A stretch of DNA of 64,000 bases from Candidatus Peribacteria bacterium (GTDB lineage: Bacteria > Patescibacteriota > Gracilibacteria > UBA1369 > LOWO2-01-FULL-3). This document shows positions 46,576 to 63,120 of this stretch, piece after piece. The stretch lies in the NCBI GenBank assembly GCA_943357285.1, contig CALRGJ010000007.1, forward strand, positions 56 through 64,055, in the 5' to 3' direction. The notes below the pieces were generated by a model. It was not told the origin of the DNA, did no database searches, and was given only the letters and a program-made list of their open reading frames with translations. The translations under genes were made by a program, and so were the position numbers. The stretch's first letter is position 1. Every line of letters starts with the position of its first letter.

Positions 46576-47671
46576 TTATGGCGCCGAGAATTTGGGTGAT
46601 GAACTCATTCTAGAAGGGATGCTCGAAACTCTAAGAGCTGTATCTCCCGATGCAGAAATTACCGTCATGAGCGGAAATCCAAAGGAGACAAAATGGCTCT
46701 ATAAGGCAAGATATGGCATGGAGGCAGTTGCTAAGTTTCCATCAGGAATTAGAAGCTTTTTGAAATCTATTTTTCCAAATTCGCCTACAAAGGAAGCGGT
46801 AGATAATTGCGATTATTTTATTCTTGGTGGTGGTGGACTTTTCAATAATTTAAATTGGCACGCCAGTATTATTTGGGCTATGCAAGCCCGCCAGGCTCTC
46901 AGGAAAAATAAACCTATTATCATTTACGGACAAAGCATTGGACCACTTAGCAGTATGGGAGAATTTTTCGTCAGAAGGATTTTTTCCAAGGCTAGTTTTA
47001 TTGGAGTAAGAGATGAGGATTCAGCAGCCCTATTAAAAAATCTGGGAATTACAAAGGAAATTACCGTAACTCCGGACCTAGCTTTCCGCGTACCTGTGCC
47101 AGCTCCCAAGCCTGCCCCTGTACTCACTACTCCCACTGTAATTATCTCTCTTCGCCAGCTCAGCAACATAAAAGATAAATCCATCGAGGAATTTTCAAAG
47201 TTCTGTAATTGGCTTATTGAAGAGCGAAAGTGCGTTTTGAAATTTATGGAATTTCAACAGGGAAGTGAAGGCGACAGAAATTTACACCAAAAAGTAATTT
47301 CTCAAATTAATCAAAGAGACAAAGTAATTAATATAAATCCAGCGATAGATCCCGAGGCACTTTTCAATCATTTTCAAAAAGCGAGTTTTGTTTTTGCTAT
47401 GAGAATGCACGCCACTATCTGCGCCATGAAAACTTGTAAACCATTCTTAGCCATCAGTTATTCCAAGAAAATCGATTCACTGATAAAGGATTCTGACCTG
47501 GGAGAATACATCATTAGCCACAATGATATCAGCTTCGATAAACTCAAAGCACACTTTATTTCTTTAGATGGAAAAAAGGATAATGTAAAAGAAAAACTCC
47601 AAGTTCTAAATAGTGAGAATTTGGAAAAACTAAAATCAGCCGAGCTTAAATTGAAAAATCTTTTGAAGTAA
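46553..47671 (+). CDS. Polysaccharide pyruvyl transferase family protein (CsaB-like)
   Basis: GNYGAENLGDE, GGGGLF, QSIGP, VRDEDS, PDLAF, MRMH. Confidence 0.9.
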   Translation: MKIVICGNYGAENLGDELILEGMLETLRAVSPDAEITVMSGNPKETKWLYKARYGMEAVAKFPSGIRSFLKSIFPNSPTKEAVDNCDYFILGGGGLFNNLNWHASIIWAMQARQALRKNKPIIIYGQSIGPLSSMGEFFVRRIFSKASFIGVRDEDSAALLKNLGITKEITVTPDLAFRVPVPAPKPAPVLTTPTVIISLRQLSNIKDKSIEEFSKFCNWLIEERKCVLKFMEFQQGSEGDRNLHQKVISQINQRDKVININPAIDPEALFNHFQKASFVFAMRMHATICAMKTCKPFLAISYSKKIDSLIKDSDLGEYIISHNDISFDKLKAHFISLDGKKDNVKEKLQVLNSENLEKLKSAELKLKNLLK

Positions 47672-48560
47672 TTTTGTGCTTCTGCGTACCTCTTTCTGCT
47701 ATCACTAAGGCAGCCATTTTATTGGCTTTTTTACATGACATTTCTATATTCATGCCATTCACATATCCACTCAAAAATCCTGCGCGGAAAGCATCTCCAC
47801 AACCGGTCGTATCCACCACCTTCACTCCGGCAACAGCAGGGACGTTTATTACATCTCCATTCTCGAAAATATCACAGCCTTTTTCTCCAGTAGTTTTAAT
47901 TAGGAAGCCGCATAAGGAAGCCAATTTATCCTCGCTAAGATCCAGCTTTTTCATCAACATTTCTACCTCGTAATCATTTGCAATCATGCCCACAGACTTC
48001 TCAATTAATTCCAAAATTTCTTCTTTGCTCAATGCCGGAATTGCCTGGCCGGGATCAAAAATAAACTTAATTCCAACACTATTAAAATATCTGCCAAAGT
48101 GCATCATTCTTTTAGGAGGTTCCGGCGCAATAATTGCGCAATCAATAGTACTAGGATCTACTCCCTTTAATTCCAGCCCATCTTCCAAATTATCCATCGC
48201 TCCAGGAGAAAAAATAGAAATTTGATTCTGTTTATTATCACTCAAAATGTAGGCCGAAGCAGTTAGTTTCCCACCATCCACAGCAATCTGACTCGCAGAA
48301 ATTCCATTCACATCCATCCATTTTTTATATCTTTCAAAATCCATTCCCGCCACGCCAAGAATGACAGGTTCACATTCCAAAAGCTTCAAGCTATAGGCAA
48401 TATTTCCTGCGCATCCGCCAAATTCATAGTCATGAGTTTTTGCCAAAAAAGACACGCTCAAATTCTTAAGCTGATCGGCAATAAGCGAATCGGAAAATTC
48501 ACCATCAAAGGTCATCAGGTGGTCGTAGGCAATGGATCCCGTTACCAGAATTTTTTTCAT
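47646..48560 (-). CDS. PfkB family carbohydrate/nucleoside kinase (adenosine kinase-like)
   Basis: GSIAYD, FGGCAGNIAY, FDPGQ, NDYE, DTTGCGDAFRAG. Confidence 0.92.
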   Translation of the reverse strand: MKKILVTGSIAYDHLMTFDGEFSDSLIADQLKNLSVSFLAKTHDYEFGGCAGNIAYSLKLLECEPVILGVAGMDFERYKKWMDVNGISASQIAVDGGKLTASAYILSDNKQNQISIFSPGAMDNLEDGLELKGVDPSTIDCAIIAPEPPKRMMHFGRYFNSVGIKFIFDPGQAIPALSKEEILELIEKSVGMIANDYEVEMLMKKLDLSEDKLASLCGFLIKTTGEKGCDIFENGDVINVPAVAGVKVVDTTGCGDAFRAGFLSGYVNGMNIEMSCKKANKMAALVIAERGTQKHKITSKDFSI

Positions 48561-49390
48561 TTTTGCTTAGTGAAAACATCTACTTCTTCACGATCTAGTA
48601 GATTCTTGTGTGGACGATCGGTAGATTCAGTAACCTTATCAGCAGGAATAGCGAGAGCCTCATCTATATGCGCCAAACGGCTCTTCTGAATGAGTTTGCC
48701 GCTCTCCATTAAACTATCAAATGATTCGCCACAATCGCCCCAGAAGCCCTTCAAAACTTCATGCTTTAGGGTTCCTTGTTCTAGATAGAAGTTATTTACG
48801 TCAGTAATTTCCAATTCATTACGACCAGATGGTTTTAGACCCTTAATCACATCAAAAACTTGAGGGTCATACATATAACACCCAACCACCGCTAGATCAG
48901 ATTGAGGATCTTTAGGTTTCTCCACGATCTTTGTTATTTTTCCATCTTCAAGCTCGGCCACACCATATGATTTTGGATTTGCTACAGGCTTCAATAAAAC
49001 CTTCGCTCCACGAGGTAAAGCCCTGAAGTCTTTTACCGCTTCAACAAGATTGTCTTCAAATATATTATCTCCAAGAATAACAACTATTTTTTCATTATTA
49101 GAAAAGTCTTCAGCTAAGCTCAAAGCCTGAGCAATTCCACCGGCTTTTTCTTGTACTTCATAAGAGATCTTTAAACCAAACTGAGCACCTGAACCAAGTA
49201 GTTCCAAGAAGCTTCCAGCGTGGCCAATACCAGATACAATCATGATATTTGTGATACCAGCTTCCTTCATCGCAAAAAGCGGATAATAAATCATCGGCTT
49301 ATTGTAAACCGGAAGCAAATGCTTATTTGTGACTTTTGTCAGAGGAAACAGTCTGCTACCCGTACCTCCAGCTAGTATTATTCCTTTCAT
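48557..49390 (-). CDS. rmlA: Glucose-1-phosphate thymidylyltransferase (RmlA/SpsI-like)
   Basis: GIILAGGTGSRL.PLT...NKHLLPVY.KPMI, LGDNIF, EKP, RNELEITD. Confidence 0.9.
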   Translation of the reverse strand: MKGIILAGGTGSRLFPLTKVTNKHLLPVYNKPMIYYPLFAMKEAGITNIMIVSGIGHAGSFLELLGSGAQFGLKISYEVQEKAGGIAQALSLAEDFSNNEKIVVILGDNIFEDNLVEAVKDFRALPRGAKVLLKPVANPKSYGVAELEDGKITKIVEKPKDPQSDLAVVGCYMYDPQVFDVIKGLKPSGRNELEITDVNNFYLEQGTLKHEVLKGFWGDCGESFDSLMESGKLIQKSRLAHIDEALAIPADKVTESTDRPHKNLLDREEVDVFTKQK

Positions 49391-49474
49391 AGGCCAGATT
49401 AAACACTAAATTTGGAGAAAAAGCAAGTTTTAAAAGAAGAGGCATGAATAAGGTGAAATTTAGACATGGAGGCA

Positions 49475-49503
49475 TTGACAAAATATGGCATATATGTTAC
49501 ATT
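49475..49503 (+). promoter_or_regulatory. Promoter of the GC-rich cassette
   Basis: TTGACA-17-TACATT with TGn; ATGGCA/TGCCAT inverted repeat (49485-49508) overlaps the -10. Confidence 0.7.
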
Positions 49504-49509
49504 GCCATG

Positions 49510-49855
49510 CTTGATTTGCGTGACGGTCTCAGCCGCAGCACAAACCAAGACCTAGTAGGGTTGCTAGGATGGTACTTAAAGGTCAGTAATCGCTGACTCG
49601 GATGGTGTCATCTTCCCCGACCGGTCATGGTTGCGGAAGGAGACAAGTTCCAAGTCAACGATATTTGACAACTGGTACTCAACAATTCAAAGGGTAATCC
49701 GAAAGTCGGAGCTACCTCAAGAAATTCAAGTTTTTCTACAGGAGAATATTAAGGAACCTAGGGTGGTAAAGAAACCACCCAGTTCATTTTCGTTCTCAAA
49801 ATTAACACCCCACACATAGAGCTGGCCAAGGTTGGCACAGGCTCAAAAGGATAGT
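49510..49855 (+). ncRNA. Long structured 5' leader
   Basis: Multiple hairpins (CCTAGTA/TGCTAGG, GTCAG/CTGAC, GGGTGGT/ACCACCC) and the 5' arm of a long-range stem. Confidence 0.5.
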
Positions 49856-52046
49856 ATGTCGCTAGAACTGAATCGGGCGCTCGAAAGGGCGCGGACCGCA
49901 GAGCAGGAGAGCGCAAGTCTCCAGCTCCGCATCGACAACAACCTTCAGCCAGAGATCGATCGCCTCCGCAAAGAGCGTGATCAAGAGGAGCAGGAGAAGG
50001 GCAAGGCGAAAGCCGAAGCCCGGACCCAGAGCTCCGCTCGGCAGGATGCTGAGTCCAAAGCCGACGCCCGTGCGCGTCGCATCGCTGAACTCGAAACCGA
50101 GGTGGAAGAACTTCAGGAGCGGATCGCCGCCCTGGACCCCACCGAGATCGAGAAGCGTCGGCAGCAGGCCGAGCAGCAGCGACTCGCGCACGAGCAGCAG
50201 GTTCGAGAGGACGAAGAAGAGAGAAAACAGGCCGAAGAGAGCGTCAAGAGTCGCGAGACGTTCTGGATGCAGCTCAAGGTCGCTTCGATCGTCTCCATCC
50301 TGACCATCATCGGTTTCGTCATTCTCTATCTTGCCAAGGTGGAAATGACGTGGCTGGTGCGTGGCCTGGGTGGCGGCATCGTCGTAGTGCTCGCGTTCTT
50401 CGCGCCGCAGATTCTTCGATTGGCCCAGCAGGTGGCACCGCACGCAGCGGCCCACTCGTTCGGAGTCAGTCTCGGATTCGCGGCGACGATCTCGGCCCTC
50501 GTGGTATCCCTCGGTCTTCCGTCGGGTCTGGCCCCTTGGGCTCAGGTTCTGATGTGGATCGGTGCATTCCTCGGCTACACCCTGCTGTTTCAGGGTGCGT
50601 TTCTATCGGTTCGACAGCTCCTCACGGAACAGCGTGCGGGGACCGATACCACCAACGTTCGTAGCAAGGTGGCCCTCGGTTACATCACCTCCTTCCTCCT
50701 TGGGTTGATCGGCGCCGGTTTCTACGAGTACTCCGACTCGGCGTCATCATCAGCCCCCCGCTACCTCGTTCAGGTCCTCATCGGCATGCTCCTCTCAGGG
50801 GTTATGTTCCTGATTTCGATGATCGCCAACTGGGCAGCCCAGCACATCGCGGCTCATTCGACCGGCCTCTTCGCTCGCGAGAGCAAAAAGCTGTCCAAGA
50901 TCGATAAGTGGCTACGGGCCTGTAAGTCCGTTGCCGCCATCGTCTCGGTTTTCGTCGGATGGATCGTGGGGTCCGGGTACGCCTACGCCAACGGGCACAC
51001 TTCGGTGAGCTCGCGGGCAATGGCCATCGGCATCGGGTTCGGCGTCACTGTCGTCTTCTACTTGATCGAAGGCAAAATCCTCGAAGCGTGTTTCCATCGA
51101 CGGTACCACGGGGCGGTTCTCGCCATCCTGGTGCTGTTCGGATCACTCTTCGCGGCCGCTACGGCGTACCTGAGCTTCGGCAAGGTGTACTTCGTGGCGA
51201 GTGAAGGGCCTCGGTTCGCCGAAGCCCAGAGCGCCCTCGTGAAAGCGGAAAACGACTACCTCGCGGCGAGCGAGGCGACCTGTCGCATGTTCGCGGAACG
51301 GCAGGACGACGTCGTCAACAACCCCTACAGCGAAAGCATCAAGGGAATGCAGATGGCTACCGAGATCGCAGGTCGGGCAACTGATCGTAGCGAACTCGTC
51401 GAGTCGGCTCGGCTCTTCCAGGAGTCGGGTTCCAAGGCTTCGAACTGCTTGAACAAGGCGGCTCGGGCTAAGAACCTGCTCTCGTCGGTGGTGGTCTTTT
51501 CGGAGCCCACCCCGTCGGACCTCAGCTCGCAGTACTGGTTCGGGACTGACATTCCCGGCACCAGCGTCCACTCCGGTTCAGCGCGGCAGGCCATCGTGGC
51601 CGTGTGCGTGATCGACTTTCTGATCGTCATTCTCTCTATCTTCGGGTGGTTCTTCGGAGCTCCTCGTCGTGATGAAGAAAACGTGAAAGAGTCGGCCGCC
51701 CATGGCCGCATCGTTTCGATTCGTTCGAGCGATGGGGTCTGCTTCGTAGCAACCGGACTCGAGAGCGGTGTACAGTTTGATGATGTCCTCAACGTCAGAA
51801 ATGACGAAGGAAAGATGGTGGGATCGCTCACAGTCTTGGACATCGACAGTTTTGGCGAGGGCCTCTGCCTCGCCCGTCCCGCTTCCGAGAAGATGATCGT
51901 CACGGTCGGCATGACTGTGGCACTCGCGAACTGAGAGTAGGCGAGGGCACGTTTCGCCGGCGTGCCCTCGCTTCCCTCTTCTCCTCCTCCCTCTCCTCCA
52001 ATCCCAAAAAGGAGGAGGCAACTTGAACCCATGAGTACCAGTTGTC
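49667..52046. repeat. 15-bp perfect inverted repeat enclosing the GC-rich gene
   Basis: GACAACTGGTACTCA (49667-49681) / TGAGTACCAGTTGTC (52032-52046). Confidence 0.9.
49856..51934 (+). CDS. GC-rich orphan polytopic membrane protein (N-terminal coiled coil, ~10 TM, small C-terminal beta domain)
   Basis: Single long ORF, strong GC3 bias, ATG 49856 preceded by AAAAGGA. Confidence 0.85.
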   Translation: MSLELNRALERARTAEQESASLQLRIDNNLQPEIDRLRKERDQEEQEKGKAKAEARTQSSARQDAESKADARARRIAELETEVEELQERIAALDPTEIEKRRQQAEQQRLAHEQQVREDEEERKQAEESVKSRETFWMQLKVASIVSILTIIGFVILYLAKVEMTWLVRGLGGGIVVVLAFFAPQILRLAQQVAPHAAAHSFGVSLGFAATISALVVSLGLPSGLAPWAQVLMWIGAFLGYTLLFQGAFLSVRQLLTEQRAGTDTTNVRSKVALGYITSFLLGLIGAGFYEYSDSASSSAPRYLVQVLIGMLLSGVMFLISMIANWAAQHIAAHSTGLFARESKKLSKIDKWLRACKSVAAIVSVFVGWIVGSGYAYANGHTSVSSRAMAIGIGFGVTVVFYLIEGKILEACFHRRYHGAVLAILVLFGSLFAAATAYLSFGKVYFVASEGPRFAEAQSALVKAENDYLAASEATCRMFAERQDDVVNNPYSESIKGMQMATEIAGRATDRSELVESARLFQESGSKASNCLNKAARAKNLLSSVVVFSEPTPSDLSSQYWFGTDIPGTSVHSGSARQAIVAVCVIDFLIVILSIFGWFFGAPRRDEENVKESAAHGRIVSIRSSDGVCFVATGLESGVQFDDVLNVRNDEGKMVGSLTVLDIDSFGEGLCLARPASEKMIVTVGMTVALAN

Positions 52047-52111
52047 TTCTCCCCCAAGTTTTATAAATTTTACAAGACTTAGGGGAGAAGCACCAACATA
52101 GCTTTTCAAAG

Positions 52112-52140
52112 AAAAAGGCTCACTAACCCAGAGCCTTTTT
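52112..52140. terminator. Bidirectional intrinsic terminator
   Basis: AAAAAGGCTC-N9-GAGCCTTTTT between convergent units. Confidence 0.8.
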
Positions 52141-52171
52141 CACAAATCTAAATTTAAATAATCACCGTGAT

Positions 52172-53707
52172 CTATTTTCCAAGAGTCTCCTCGTAGGCTT
52201 GTGATAAAGAAGCCTTTAAAAACAGATCAGGGTTAACACTCTTTTTATCATTTTTATCTCCAACTAGAACCTGGCCACCTTCTGTTTCACCACTATAACC
52301 CAAATCTTTAGAAACTTTTATTTCGAAAGTATAATTAGCTGGTGCAGAAATAGAATGATCCTTTGAACTTTCAATCTGATAATTTCTTACTGTAACCTTA
52401 TAAGTATTATCTTCATAAGCTGCATTAGTTATAGGATCGATACCAGTAAGTGGTGTCAATTCTATGGTAGGACTAGGGTTATTTGCACCAGGATTTTTAA
52501 GTACCACGTTAGCAAGATCAGACACCATAGCTTTCAACTTATCAGCAATAGCTGCATCTAGATCTGTTTTAATTTTCATTGCATTTACGTTTTTACCCTC
52601 CACCGCCGGTCTTCCATCTGGTAAATTTACCATCTTAAAACTGTAAACGCCTGGAGATTCAAATGTTACATTTAAGCGTTTTTCACCATATTGCGCATAA
52701 ACTGTTTCACCAAATTTAGTTGGAATTCTATTAACAACAATATTTAATGAGCGAAGTTCACCCTCCATAGCAGCAAAATTTTCTTTAGGTTTTTCAATAG
52801 GTTTAGCAGGTTCAACAGGTTTAGCAGGTTCAGCAGGCTTAGCTGGTTCAGCCTTTGGTTTTACTGGTTCAACAGGTTTAGGTTTAGTCTCCTCTTTCTT
52901 CTTAGGTTCTTCTACTTTCTTTACCTTAACTTCAACAACTTTACCAAATCTATCTTTTTTTCTATTACCACTCTTTTTTGCAATTTTTAGCTTAATTTTA
53001 TAAATCACTGGAACCTCAACATCATTTCCATCAACGTCCTTGCCGATAGCGATAGTAGGATCCTCTGTAAGGTCAATATTTCCAACAGCTCTATTGAAAG
53101 ACAAAAGAAGATTGTAAGCTCCTTCTGGTCCATAAATTTCCTCTTCAGTGAATTTATTTTCTTCAATCATTTTAGCCCAGGCTGCATCTGTAAATTCAGT
53201 CATCCCCGCAATGGCAGTCATAATGGCAGTCATTCTTTCCTTTTTTTCTCCATCTTCCATTGTAGAGAAGCCATCAGCATCAATACGATCAGAGAAAGCA
53301 ACGAAATTCTGAGCTGTAGCGGCTGCGTCTTCATACCAACTTACCTTATGTTCCTTACCTTCTTTATCATTGTATTTATATGCAACCACACTTTCACGCT
53401 TAATCTTTTTATTGAAAACCGTTCTATCAACACCACCAGTCATGAAGTAGACAGCCTCTTTAGCTTTTATTTCCGGCTTTTTATCTGCAAGATATTGACC
53501 AAGCTCAAAATTTTGAGCCCACACAGATCGTGGTGCTTCAAATGGACTCTTCTCTTTGTCCTTCAAAACAACCAAGTCCTTAGAAGGATCAGCTTTTTGT
53601 CTTTCGCTAGTATATTTATCAAGGGTCTTTTTAAAATCCTCGTAAATACCATCAAGCAACCCTGCGGGGTCTTTTTCAACTTCAGGAGCATTTTTTGTTT
53701 CTGCCAT
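52172..53707 (-). CDS. Hypothetical protein with a K/P/E-rich linker
   Basis: 511 aa; KPAEPA/KPVEPA repeats separate two domains. Confidence 0.8.
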   Translation of the reverse strand: MAETKNAPEVEKDPAGLLDGIYEDFKKTLDKYTSERQKADPSKDLVVLKDKEKSPFEAPRSVWAQNFELGQYLADKKPEIKAKEAVYFMTGGVDRTVFNKKIKRESVVAYKYNDKEGKEHKVSWYEDAAATAQNFVAFSDRIDADGFSTMEDGEKKERMTAIMTAIAGMTEFTDAAWAKMIEENKFTEEEIYGPEGAYNLLLSFNRAVGNIDLTEDPTIAIGKDVDGNDVEVPVIYKIKLKIAKKSGNRKKDRFGKVVEVKVKKVEEPKKKEETKPKPVEPVKPKAEPAKPAEPAKPVEPAKPIEKPKENFAAMEGELRSLNIVVNRIPTKFGETVYAQYGEKRLNVTFESPGVYSFKMVNLPDGRPAVEGKNVNAMKIKTDLDAAIADKLKAMVSDLANVVLKNPGANNPSPTIELTPLTGIDPITNAAYEDNTYKVTVRNYQIESSKDHSISAPANYTFEIKVSKDLGYSGETEGGQVLVGDKNDKKSVNPDLFLKASLSQAYEETLGK

Positions 53708-53901
53708 AAATTTTTTGTTATTTGGTTTTTATTTGTATATATAATACCACATTTGGGCAATTTTATCAAATCGAAAGAGTCAGGAATTTAAGAAAATTTT
53801 AGGTTTGGAGAATATAAATTTGGCAGAAATAGATTTTTTGTCTAGGCGCATGAATAGAAAAAATATTTTTAAAATAATAATATAACAATCCAAACAAACT
53901 T

Positions 53902-54279
53902 ATGGCTAAGAAAAAAATACAACTAGAAGCAAAAGTGGATCAGATTCTAAATAAGATTGATACCATGGATAAGAAATTTGACACCATGGATCAGAAATTC
54001 GATGCTATAGATCAAAGATTCGATTCCATGGACAAGAGAATCGATCACGTCCTAGTTTATGTACAGGAGGAATTTGATACGGTACATCAAAGGTTTGATA
54101 GTATGCTCAGCAAAAAAGAGTTTTACGAGTGGACATACAGATACGACGACCTTCTGCAAGAAATGCGTGACGCACGCCAAAATCGTCTACTATTTGAAAA
54201 ACAATTTGTGGATCTCGATGACACGGTAGCCCAGCACGAAAATAGAATTAAGAAACTCGAGCACAAATCTAAAGCTTAA
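53902..54279 (+). CDS. Small coiled-coil protein with heptad repeats
   Basis: DTMDKKF-DTMDQKF-DAIDQRF-DSMDKRI. Confidence 0.8.
   Translation: MAKKKIQLEAKVDQILNKIDTMDKKFDTMDQKFDAIDQRFDSMDKRIDHVLVYVQEEFDTVHQRFDSMLSKKEFYEWTYRYDDLLQEMRDARQNRLLFEKQFVDLDDTVAQHENRIKKLEHKSKA
53959..54042 (+). repeat. Four degenerate 21-bp coding tandem repeats
   Basis: GATACCATGGATAAGAAATTT / GACACCATGGATCAGAAATTC / GATGCTATAGATCAAAGATTC / GATTCCATGGACAAGAGAATC. Confidence 0.7.
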
Positions 54280-55148
54280 TTATTCAAATACGTCTCAACC
54301 GCCTCGATCCACGACCTCATGGCAGGCATTTTTGAGTTCAAAAGAATTGAAAAATTAGGTCGCTTCGCCGGTCTAGGAAATTCAGCAGTTGTTACCGGTA
54401 AAACTTTCACTTCCATCTTTTTTATCTCAAAAATCTTCTTCGCAAAGTCATACCAACTGCACACGCCAGAATTAGTCAGATGATAAATTCCAAAAGGCAA
54501 AGGTTTGCCGTCCTCCAAAGGTTCTACAATCTGGCCAATTACCGCATTCACTAAATCATGAGTATAAGTAGGGGAACCAATTTGATCATTTACCACCTTC
54601 ATCTCTGTTCCATTTTGTATGGCCGCTGCACCGTACTTCAACATAGTATCAACGAAATTCTTTCCATTTTTTCCAAATAGCCAAGAAGTGCGCACTATAT
54701 AATATTTTCCCATACTCTCATTAATCAATTTTTCTCCGGCCAATTTTGATTCACCATAGACATTTATCGGAGCGACAGCATCACCCTCCACATATCCAGC
54801 AGACTTCATTCCATCAAAAACATAATCCGTGCTGAAATGAATCAGCGCCGCATCAATTTCCTTACAAAATTTTGCAACATTTCCCACCGCTTCCGCATTA
54901 AGCCTAAAAGCTGCATCTCTGTTCTTTTCCGCATCATCTACTGCAGTATAAGCCGTGCAATTTATTACCAAATCCGGCTTTATTTCCAAAAACTTCTCTC
55001 TCAATTTCACCGCATCAGTGATATCCAAATCCGCATGCCCATAGGCATGCAAATTCAAACCCACCATCCCCACAAAAAAATCCATGAAGCATGAGCCAAG
55101 CATGCCAGACTTACCCAGAAGCATAATTTTAATACGTGGATTTTCCAT
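54276..55148 (-). CDS. rmlD: dTDP-4-dehydrorhamnose reductase
   Basis: G.SGMLG, NCTAYTAVD.AE, STDYVFDG, YGESKLAGE, DQIGSPT, RPAKRP; start set at MENPRIK. Confidence 0.95.
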   Translation of the reverse strand: MENPRIKIMLLGKSGMLGSCFMDFFVGMVGLNLHAYGHADLDITDAVKLREKFLEIKPDLVINCTAYTAVDDAEKNRDAAFRLNAEAVGNVAKFCKEIDAALIHFSTDYVFDGMKSAGYVEGDAVAPINVYGESKLAGEKLINESMGKYYIVRTSWLFGKNGKNFVDTMLKYGAAAIQNGTEMKVVNDQIGSPTYTHDLVNAVIGQIVEPLEDGKPLPFGIYHLTNSGVCSWYDFAKKIFEIKKMEVKVLPVTTAEFPRPAKRPNFSILLNSKMPAMRSWIEAVETYLNN

Positions 55149-63018: not shown

Positions 63019-63120
63019 AAAAAATAGTCCGACTAGCGGACTACTCCCGACCACGTTCCTAGGCTGGTTGTCCCAGTCACGCCACCATCCGGTGACAGTT
63101 CAGAATACAGGTCTTTGTAC
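63019..63120 (-). ncRNA. Putative ~100-nt structured small RNA
   Basis: TTGCTT-17-TAGACT promoter (63154-63126), internal hairpins, terminator TAGTCCG-CTAGT-CGGACTA-TTTTTT. Confidence 0.5.

Follow-up and report, generated by a model that had tools for sequence, protein, structure and literature searches.

Why would an AT-rich genome keep a GC-rich protein-coding gene, and why should that gene be enclosed by elements like those around ribosomal RNA (rRNA) genes? Both questions are raised by a locus in a 64,000-nucleotide (nt) stretch of DNA from a Candidatus Peribacteria bacterium. We refer to this whole stretch, bases 56-64055 of contig C7, as the window, and to its source genome as G000 (1.21 Mb, 38.2% GC, 25 contigs, 99% completeness). 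The locus is present as a single copy and holds gene A, an open reading frame (ORF) between rmlA (48557-49390, minus strand) and an rmlD gene. From 49850 to 51950 the GC content is 0.56-0.63, compared with 0.33-0.44 in the flanks of the gene, in agreement with the initial annotation of this DNA, which had described a GC-rich ORF in an AT-rich window. The GC contents of its first, second and third codon positions are 0.62, 0.44 and 0.75, and the third-position value (GC3) of neighbouring genes is 0.24-0.39. Relative to these neighbours its codon preferences are reversed, with 38 CTC codons versus 2, 24 TCG versus 2 and 15 CGG versus 0. We lean towards the answer, reached by analogy with the rRNA units of the same genome, that a transcription and processing unit in the style of an rRNA operon has been co-opted here to express a protein-coding gene, gene A. 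The parts of this unit, including its 5' and 3' untranslated regions (UTRs), are as follows.

49475-49503, plus strand: promoter TTGACA-17-TACATT, sigma-70-type with 10 of 12 matches, TG-extended; the transcript start is predicted.
49508-49677, plus strand: structured leader RNA of 170 nt with two small hairpins and one long one; fold z-score -5.3.
49660-49672, plus strand: boxA-like element GATATTTGACAAC (GATATTTGACAA at 49660-49671), which runs into the first bases of the 5' arm; it differs at 3 positions from the 13-mer in the 23S rRNA leader of G000.
49667-49690, plus strand: 5' arm of the enclosing helix, perfect core 49667-49681; predicted duplex -33.2 kcal/mol.
49761-49790, plus strand: terminator-like hairpin with a T-rich tail in the 5' UTR, between the boxA-like element and the start codon; not conserved in locus L020.
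49856-51934, plus strand: gene A, an ORF of 692 amino acids (aa) from ATG (TTG at 49832); GC 0.60.
51940-51972, plus strand: GC-rich hairpin past the stop codon, followed by a C/T-rich tract; -26.1 kcal/mol.
52023-52046, plus strand: 3' arm of the enclosing helix, perfect core 52032-52046, complement of the 5' arm.
52046-52090, plus strand: hairpin abutting the 3' arm (CTTCTCCCCCAAGT...), -21.0 kcal/mol (-18.4 in L020); sequence kept with L020.
About 52111-52141, no strand assigned: terminator of A-tract, stem and T-tract, common to gene A and the convergent gene B; fold -15.9 kcal/mol.

The promoter and the terminator lie where the initial annotation had placed them, the latter at 52112-52140. 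The consensus terminator scan did not call this terminator. Also as first described, GACAACTGGTACTCA (49667-49681) and TGAGTACCAGTTGTC (52032-52046) are exact complements over 15 nt, and the pairing extends to 24 nt at 83%. An additional extension had been proposed through TTCAAGTT (49725-49732) and AACTTGAA (52020-52027); these segments are present, but the best duplex uses UUCAA at 49686-49690 instead. The 15-nt complement is the longest Watson-Crick run between the two UTRs. Among 1500 random intervals of G000, only one had a run of at least 15 nt between its flanks. These longest-run tests were used in place of the unrestricted duplex energy of the whole UTRs, which was uninformative (z -1.3 to -1.9).

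We compared the locus with its counterparts in the sister species G004 and G005, of which G005 belongs to the same genus, and in the further relatives G002, G055 and G023. Locus L004 is from G055, L008 and L014 are from G005, L017 is from G002, the partial copy L003 is from G023, and L021 is a metagenome locus. Three independent loci have both ends of gene A in sequence, and at all three the corresponding position holds the longest complement between the two UTRs.

G000: arms GACAACTGGTACTCA and TGAGTACCAGTTGTC, 15 nt, a length reached by 0 of 300 shuffles.
L020: arms GACAACTGGTAAG and CTTACCAGTTGTC, 13 nt, reached by 0 of 300 shuffles.
L004: arms GACACAACGGATACTTC and GAAGTATCTGTTGTGTC, 17 nt with one G-U pair, reached by 2 of 300 shuffles.

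The arm extension past the common core co-varies (CTCA/TGAG versus AG/CT), and the arms of L004 are wholly different. The leader-trailer pairing is kept by compensatory change in all three complete loci, which are otherwise set in different surroundings: rmlA in G000, rplJ/rplL in L020 and a RelE-like gene in L004. Because the distant homologous loci L020 and L004 carry the enclosing complement with compensatory changes, its chance origin is excluded. Past its 3' arm L020 repeats the order seen in G000, with a hairpin of conserved sequence directly followed by a terminator. By eye, L004 also has a hairpin between the stop codon and the 3' arm.

The leader RNA recurs in close relatives. Its fold is more stable than that of shuffled sequences (z -5.3 and -3.8), and leader and promoter are about 81% identical in G005, where the -35 region and the promoter spacing are kept. 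G002 has a similar promoter ahead of a leader recognised by a weak covariance-model match (25.9 bits). In all three genomes the leader lies downstream of rmlA. It was found in 2 of 56 family genomes by BLAST and in 3 of 151 relatives by the covariance model. The consensus of the three sequences has 49 predicted pairs, three of them with changes on both sides, so covariation support is thin. Patterns of the leader and arm DNA had no match in viral contigs, nor did a pattern of the 3' module in species genomes. Homology of the leader ends at ...TTTGACAACTGGT, after which G005 has a different, GC-rich coiled-coil ORF. The G005 contig (end of L014, C31:12018) and the G002 contig (end of L017, C17:16116) stop 55-460 nt past the leader. 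Both stops coincide with the start of the GC-rich payload, which suggests that such payloads may often vanish in assembly or binning, and hence that the gene A family may look rarer than it is.

The boxA-like element follows the promoter in the expected order and lies 184 nt upstream of the ATG at 49856. Counterparts are found at the same place in L020 (GTTCCTTGACAAC), L004 (GATCTTTGACAC), G005 and G002 (GTTCATTGACAAC). The gammaproteobacterial boxA consensus given in PMC5725501 is GYTCTTTAANA. By our own count, the gene A element and the 23S leader element of G000 each differ from it at 3 of its 10 specified positions.

The design of the locus mirrors that of the genome's own rRNA units. Leader-trailer helices and boxA are established parts of precursor rRNA (PMC10250234). 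In both rRNA units of G000, boxA is embedded in the 5' strand of the helix between leader and trailer. In the 23S unit, leader segment GATCCTTGAAAACTAGTGGC pairs (-30.1 kcal/mol) with trailer GCTAGTTTTCAGG, which lies past the 5S gene. In the 16S unit, the leader (CCTTTAACATCTAGAATG... / CCTTTAACATCTAGAATGTAATAGAG...) pairs with its trailer over 19 perfect nt (-53.2 kcal/mol). Leader elements of the same kind precede the 23S genes of G005 and G055. In G000 the 16S and 23S genes lie 4.3 kb apart (C3:49619-58384), and the 23S unit includes the 5S gene. Each of the two units has its own promoter-like site, boxA-like element and leader-trailer helix. NusB, the only Nus factor searched for, is encoded at C11:1117-1524, and RNase III adjoins it at C11:666-1055 on the same strand (C11:666-1524). 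The resemblance to boxA and the enclosing stem that had first been pointed out are thus conserved features that match the leader-trailer design of G000. By analogy, the gene A helix would work like a leader-trailer processing helix, and cleavage itself may follow the same route. It would do so outside the rRNA class, because its payload is a conserved protein-coding gene and Rfam has no match there. Rfam likewise had no match on seven other GC-rich islands, and a scan for transfer RNA (tRNA) and transfer-messenger RNA found none at the gene A locus.

These islands were defined by 500-nt windows above 52% GC, which gave nine regions in G000. Eight were examined, and the weakest was left out (on C11, maximum 0.526, with a Pro/Gln-rich ORF). 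A boxA-like element together with an enclosing complement was found in seven of the eight, in line with the earlier expectation that other such cassettes exist. The longest flank-to-flank runs are 15 nt for gene A, 14 for C8, 12 for C4, 11 for C16, 10 for C1, C3 and C6b, and 9 for C6a. Among the 1500 random intervals, runs reached at least 14 nt in 3, at least 12 in 41, at least 11 in 134 and at least 10 in 396. The elements and helices outside gene A are as follows.

C8: element and 5' arm GTTCCTTAACAACTCGCAAGGT, 3' partner ACCTTGCGAGTTG over 13 nt; a second, inner pair of 14 nt.
C3: element and 5' arm TTTTGACAACAAGG, 3' partner CCTTGTTGTC.
C6b: element and 5' arm ATTTGACAACAAGGGTAGTAA, 3' partner TTACTACCCT.
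C16: element and 5' arm GATCTTTGAAAATTAATATCCGCTC, 3' partner GAGCGGATATT.
C4: element GTTCCTTGAAAACT, about 100 nt ahead of a separate helix of 12-14 nt.
C1: element GTTCTTTAAAAA, ahead of an imperfect helix of 17 nt.

An enrichment test set in advance took the 13-mer of the 23S boxA and counted its matches in the sense 5' flanks of the eight islands, which make up 3200 nt of 2.43 Mb. With at most one mismatch there was 1 match versus 0.008 expected, with at most two there were 2 versus 0.108 (P 0.005), and with at most three there were 5 versus 1.2 (P 0.008). The closest copies belong to C4 and C16, with 1 and 2 mismatches to the 23S element. The motif [CT]TT[GA]ACAAC, chosen post hoc, occurs 28 times genome-wide and 4 times in island flanks. 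BLAST among the islands found no flank sequence in common. Most of the payloads that could be read are proteins of the envelope; gene A aside, these are three lipoprotein-like ORFs and a transporter-like protein. Two short islands of about 800 nt each, C3:665-1552 and C6:68899-69727, have arms of the TTTGACAACAAGG type. Their sense ORFs are small only (94 and 86 aa) and they have no Rfam match; these islands could encode small proteins or unknown RNAs.

We then asked how the GC-richness itself is distributed. In G000 it is essentially confined to the coding region plus the short 3' hairpin and C/T-rich tract, and the promoter, leader, arms, terminator and gene B all have a host-like composition. 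Gene A homologues have a GC3 of 0.92 in L020, 0.88 in L004, 0.70 in the G005 fragment and 0.57 in the partial copy of G023, and all five family contexts seen have AT-rich flanks. The three complete loci and the G005 fragment thus span 0.70-0.92 in a rare family with AT-rich flanks throughout, and the earlier view that this is not ordinary debris of horizontal gene transfer (HGT) holds. The C8-type gene provides a second case: G004 and G005 carry it at the syntenic position, with nucleotide identities of 78% and 68%, respectively. In these sister species it has a GC of 0.60-0.62 and a GC3 of 0.73-0.76, and both arms are conserved. Because C8 keeps its GC3 and its arms in two sister species, the GC-richness is maintained rather than freshly acquired, with something holding the third codon positions.

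Structure at the RNA level accompanies this composition. Per 150 nt, the predicted stability of the gene A messenger RNA (mRNA) is about double that of native messages. Against synonymous-codon shuffles it has a z-score of -4.4 in G000 and -4.6 in L020, compared with +0.6 for gene B and -1.3 for the rml genes. A 608-codon open frame antisense to gene A in L020 (2555-4381, minus strand) is not conserved in G000 and is probably a by-product of the GC3 of 0.92.

The initial annotation went on to suggest that the message is transcribed but untranslated. This is unsupported, because Shine-Dalgarno sites are conserved: in G000 the site is AAGGA at 49847-49851, and one precedes the start in five of the six gene A loci seen, with a weak site in L004. 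The family is conserved over the full length of the protein as well, at about 27% identity between G000 and L020. The protein has an N-terminal coiled coil (about residues 1-135), about nine hydrophobic segments (142-439) and a hydrophilic stretch. A final hydrophobic segment (579-597) comes next, and the C-terminal domain measures about 95 aa. Searches of Pfam, PHROG, NCBIfam, PDB sequences and the ESM Atlas gave no family or fold for genes A and B, only coiled-coil matches. The gene A family is rare: 24 proteins had E-values of at most 0.001 among 1.84 billion representatives, 12 of them at most 1e-30. Among 5.8 billion clusters there were three relatives, each on a contig of 3.3-4.3 kb. In the order, 7 of 205 genomes had family-profile matches, which extended beyond the coiled coil in three only (G000, G055 and G023).

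Taken together, these features suggest how the unit might operate. Transcription would start at a strong promoter and pass through a structured leader ending in the boxA-like element, where the 5' strand of the helix begins. By analogy with the 16S and 23S-5S units, NusB/NusE would load at boxA and modify the RNA polymerase. The modified enzyme could then cross the structured, slowly translated payload and the hairpin at 49761-49790 without coupled ribosomes. About 100 nt past the stop codon, a trailer segment would pair with the 5' strand and so enclose the whole message, with a hairpin stacked on the 3' arm and the intrinsic terminator next. The helix would serve as a substrate of RNase III, or else as an end-protecting clamp that sets the lifetime of the message. 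The message would be translated in its own cell into a coiled-coil polytopic membrane protein, a presumed partner of gene B.

Gene B (52172-53707, minus strand) encodes 511 aa, is convergent with gene A and is AT-rich (GC3 0.24). Its protein has no hydrophobic segment and contains a Pro/Lys-rich repeat linker, in which 9-nt periodic direct repeats (window 52782-52881) encode Pro, Lys, Glu and Ala. Gene A is always paired with an AT-rich gene in convergent orientation. L004 has a homologue of gene B next to gene A, 32% identical over 170 aa (E-value 8e-18), and by eye a partner of the same type lies beside gene A in L021. The partner genes of both loci contain a Pro-rich repeat similar to the linker. 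The sister species G004 lacks exactly the 4.3-kb segment 49427-53766 (no strand assigned), which comprises both genes and their promoters; genes A and B thus form a two-gene accessory module. In G004 the flanks abut without the module, at 89% identity for 47600-49426 and 85% for 53767-54300. Reading this junction against the module boundary revealed no target-site duplication, and there was no transposase or integrase among the neighbouring genes scanned, both as first reported.

An insertion sequence (IS), miniature inverted-repeat transposable element (MITE) or transposon was considered and rejected: the locus is single-copy, no transposase is found among the neighbours, there is no duplication and the insertion ends are not at the repeat arms. 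The initial annotation had held that IS or MITE ends with an empty-site allele in relatives would speak against an RNA role. G004 does supply such an allele, but the module does not end at the arms. The site upstream of the leader looks like an insertion hot spot, to judge from the differing toxin-antitoxin-like pairs found there by eye from translations. A nucleotidyltransferase/HEPN-like pair (L008 2308-3133, in G005) and an AbiEii/AbiEi-like pair (L017 3-1377, in G002) lie directly upstream of the conserved promoter and leader, and a RelE-like gene has the upstream position in L004 (17-304, in G055).

Several observations weigh against the proposal that gene A is transcribed and processed in the manner of an rRNA unit. 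Its element, ATATTTGACAACT, has 3 mismatches to the 23S leader 13-mer ATCCTTGAAAACT, and since 909 matches of equal quality occur genome-wide, it is weak when taken alone. The classical reason for a boxA is to block Rho, and the RNA-binding domain of Rho was not found in the 99%-complete G000. The classical role may therefore not apply, and the benefit of a Nus complex would then lie in pausing, intrinsic termination or folding. In the three-sequence consensus fold of the leader, part of the boxA also pairs locally with GGGTTG. The helices of the different loci measure 13-17 bp, and RNase III prefers substrates of about 20 bp. The arm core GACAACTGGTA and the hairpin past the 3' arm are nearly identical in G000 and L020 despite the low identity of the proteins, which points to a sequence-specific reader that pairing alone does not explain. 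For the L004 message, the excess of structure over its shuffles is not significant (z -1.5). Among the islands, C1, C3 and C6b have perfect runs of only 10 nt, as do 396 of the 1500 random intervals, and would not stand by the helix alone, while at C6a neither a boxA-like element nor an enclosing helix was found. Finally, the 11 sequencing runs that contain all or part of the stretch, from lake and wastewater habitats, are of DNA, with no RNA run among them.

The weak boxA match, the missing Rho and the local pairing of the element, together with the conserved and compensated helix, favour a reading in which the helix between the UTRs is real and acts on the RNA (in end protection, or in control of translation or decay), the likeness to boxA is incidental and Nus factors take no part. 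We regard this as a rather unlikely alternative. An element of the YYTTGA(A/C)AAC type starts the 5' arm in G000, G005, G002, L020 and L004; C4 and C16 hold the near copies of the 23S element described above; and both rRNA units of G000 join boxA and helix in the same way. It seems less probable still that the arms are DNA sites for inversion, switching gene A on or off, or for the exchange of payload cassettes. Such sites would account for the inverted repeats that flank gene A with the promoter outside, the end of G000/G005 homology 10 nt into the arm followed by a different GC-rich ORF, the G005 and G002 contigs that end soon after the leader, and the arm core kept between distant loci. However, G000 has no match to a serine recombinase (Resolvase family), and its one full-length tyrosine recombinase is distant, on contig C2, with none beside the locus. 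The arms differ in sequence among the islands of G000, the sole mismatch in L004 is a G-U pair on the sense strand, and the rRNA units, whose RNA role is established, have the same layout. Since the divergence between G000 and G005 leaves unconstrained sequence unalignable, a sharp end of homology need not mark a recombination joint.

Recent transfer from a high-GC donor, with a repeat that arose by chance, is close to refuted. It would fit a gene of 0.60 GC in a genome of 0.38, the absence of the module from G004 and the range of GC3 in the family (0.57-0.92), which can be read as stages of decay. Yet no relative was found in a GC-rich context: a protein-pattern scan of 185,579 species genomes (from which the source genome itself was possibly left out) confirmed 0 of 73 candidate stretches. 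A 16-sequence alignment proved too divergent to yield search patterns. All five genomic contexts are AT-rich, the GC-richness stops at the short 3' hairpin and tract with the partner gene and the rest host-like, the repeat recurs with compensation in three loci, and C8 holds a GC3 of about 0.75 across three species. About as improbable is the idea, raised in the initial annotation, of a message meant for another cell. Such "rRNA-mimic" messages would be made with Nus factors and without coupled translation, excised by RNase III, kept stable by their paired ends and translated in a high-GC partner cell. Composition, structure and wrapper speak for this idea, and the codon usage, inverse to that of the producer, would reflect translation elsewhere.

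The organism is a probable episymbiont of the candidate phyla radiation (CPR). Owing to its Gracilibacteria label, we checked the genetic code. Table 11 holds: 88% of the genome is covered by frames of at least 150 codons, and the tRNA set of G000 includes none with anticodon UCA. The 40 tRNAs include species for G-ending codons. A gene B homologue with 91% identity carries the source label "Candidatus Gracilibacteria bacterium". Elsewhere in the window, 63045-63113 (minus strand) matches the DUF3800-IX RNA motif of Rfam (50.4 bits, gathering score 36.8).

If gene A is indeed built as an rRNA-style unit, tiny AT-rich genomes apply their rRNA transcription and processing machinery to a defined set of protein-coding genes, and regulation by boxA and Nus factors reaches wider than known. 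Most of the affected genes would code for proteins of the envelope, namely polytopic membrane proteins, lipoproteins and a transporter-like protein; these genes keep a GC3 of 0.7-0.9 against mutational drift across species. The combination of a GC3 outlier, a boxA and an enclosing helix would be a cis-signature for gene finding. This reading would also account for the tendency of such genes to lie at contig ends and for their possible loss from binned genomes. It would further raise the testable question of why an mRNA should be built like an rRNA.

Known systems share parts of this architecture. A literature search of titles and abstracts, with supplements outside its scope, found no description of boxA and a leader-trailer helix around protein-coding genes, nor of GC-rich gene cassettes in CPR bacteria. 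Invertible segments and cassettes such as Hin/Gin and integrons resemble the locus in their terminal inverted repeats, outside promoter and, in sister species, variable payload. Gene A differs from them in that no recombinase gene adjoins it, the genome lacks a serine recombinase, there is no attC-like single-site palindrome and the arms vary among the cassettes of G000. In phage T7 early messages and in the 5'-3' UTR pairing of icaR, double-stranded RNA elements in UTRs set the ends and the stability of the message. In mRNAs of this RNase III-processed or end-paired kind, the double-stranded part is a local hairpin or involves the ribosome-binding site, and they are not known to combine a boxA with a helix around the whole gene. 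Protein-coding genes regulated by boxA elements are known, as the accessible part of PMC5725501 reports for suhB, which is repressed, and they share with gene A a NusB/E-type site in the 5' UTR. That part describes sites searched within 50 bp of the start codon and no enclosing helix, whereas the gene A element lies much farther upstream, joins a helix with the 3' UTR and is tied to GC3-outlier genes; the paper's supplementary tables of putative boxA-associated genes could bear on novelty.

The closest likeness in layout is to the rRNA operon leader. Gene A differs from it in its translated protein-coding payload with a Shine-Dalgarno site, in a helix of 13-17 bp versus 19-30 bp at 16S, and in that no boxB or boxC was identified and Rho was not found. 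The two are alike in their promoter, structured leader, boxA-like element, enclosing leader-trailer helix and terminator, in a genome that encodes both NusB and RNase III, and in a payload that exceeds the remainder of that genome in both GC content and structure.

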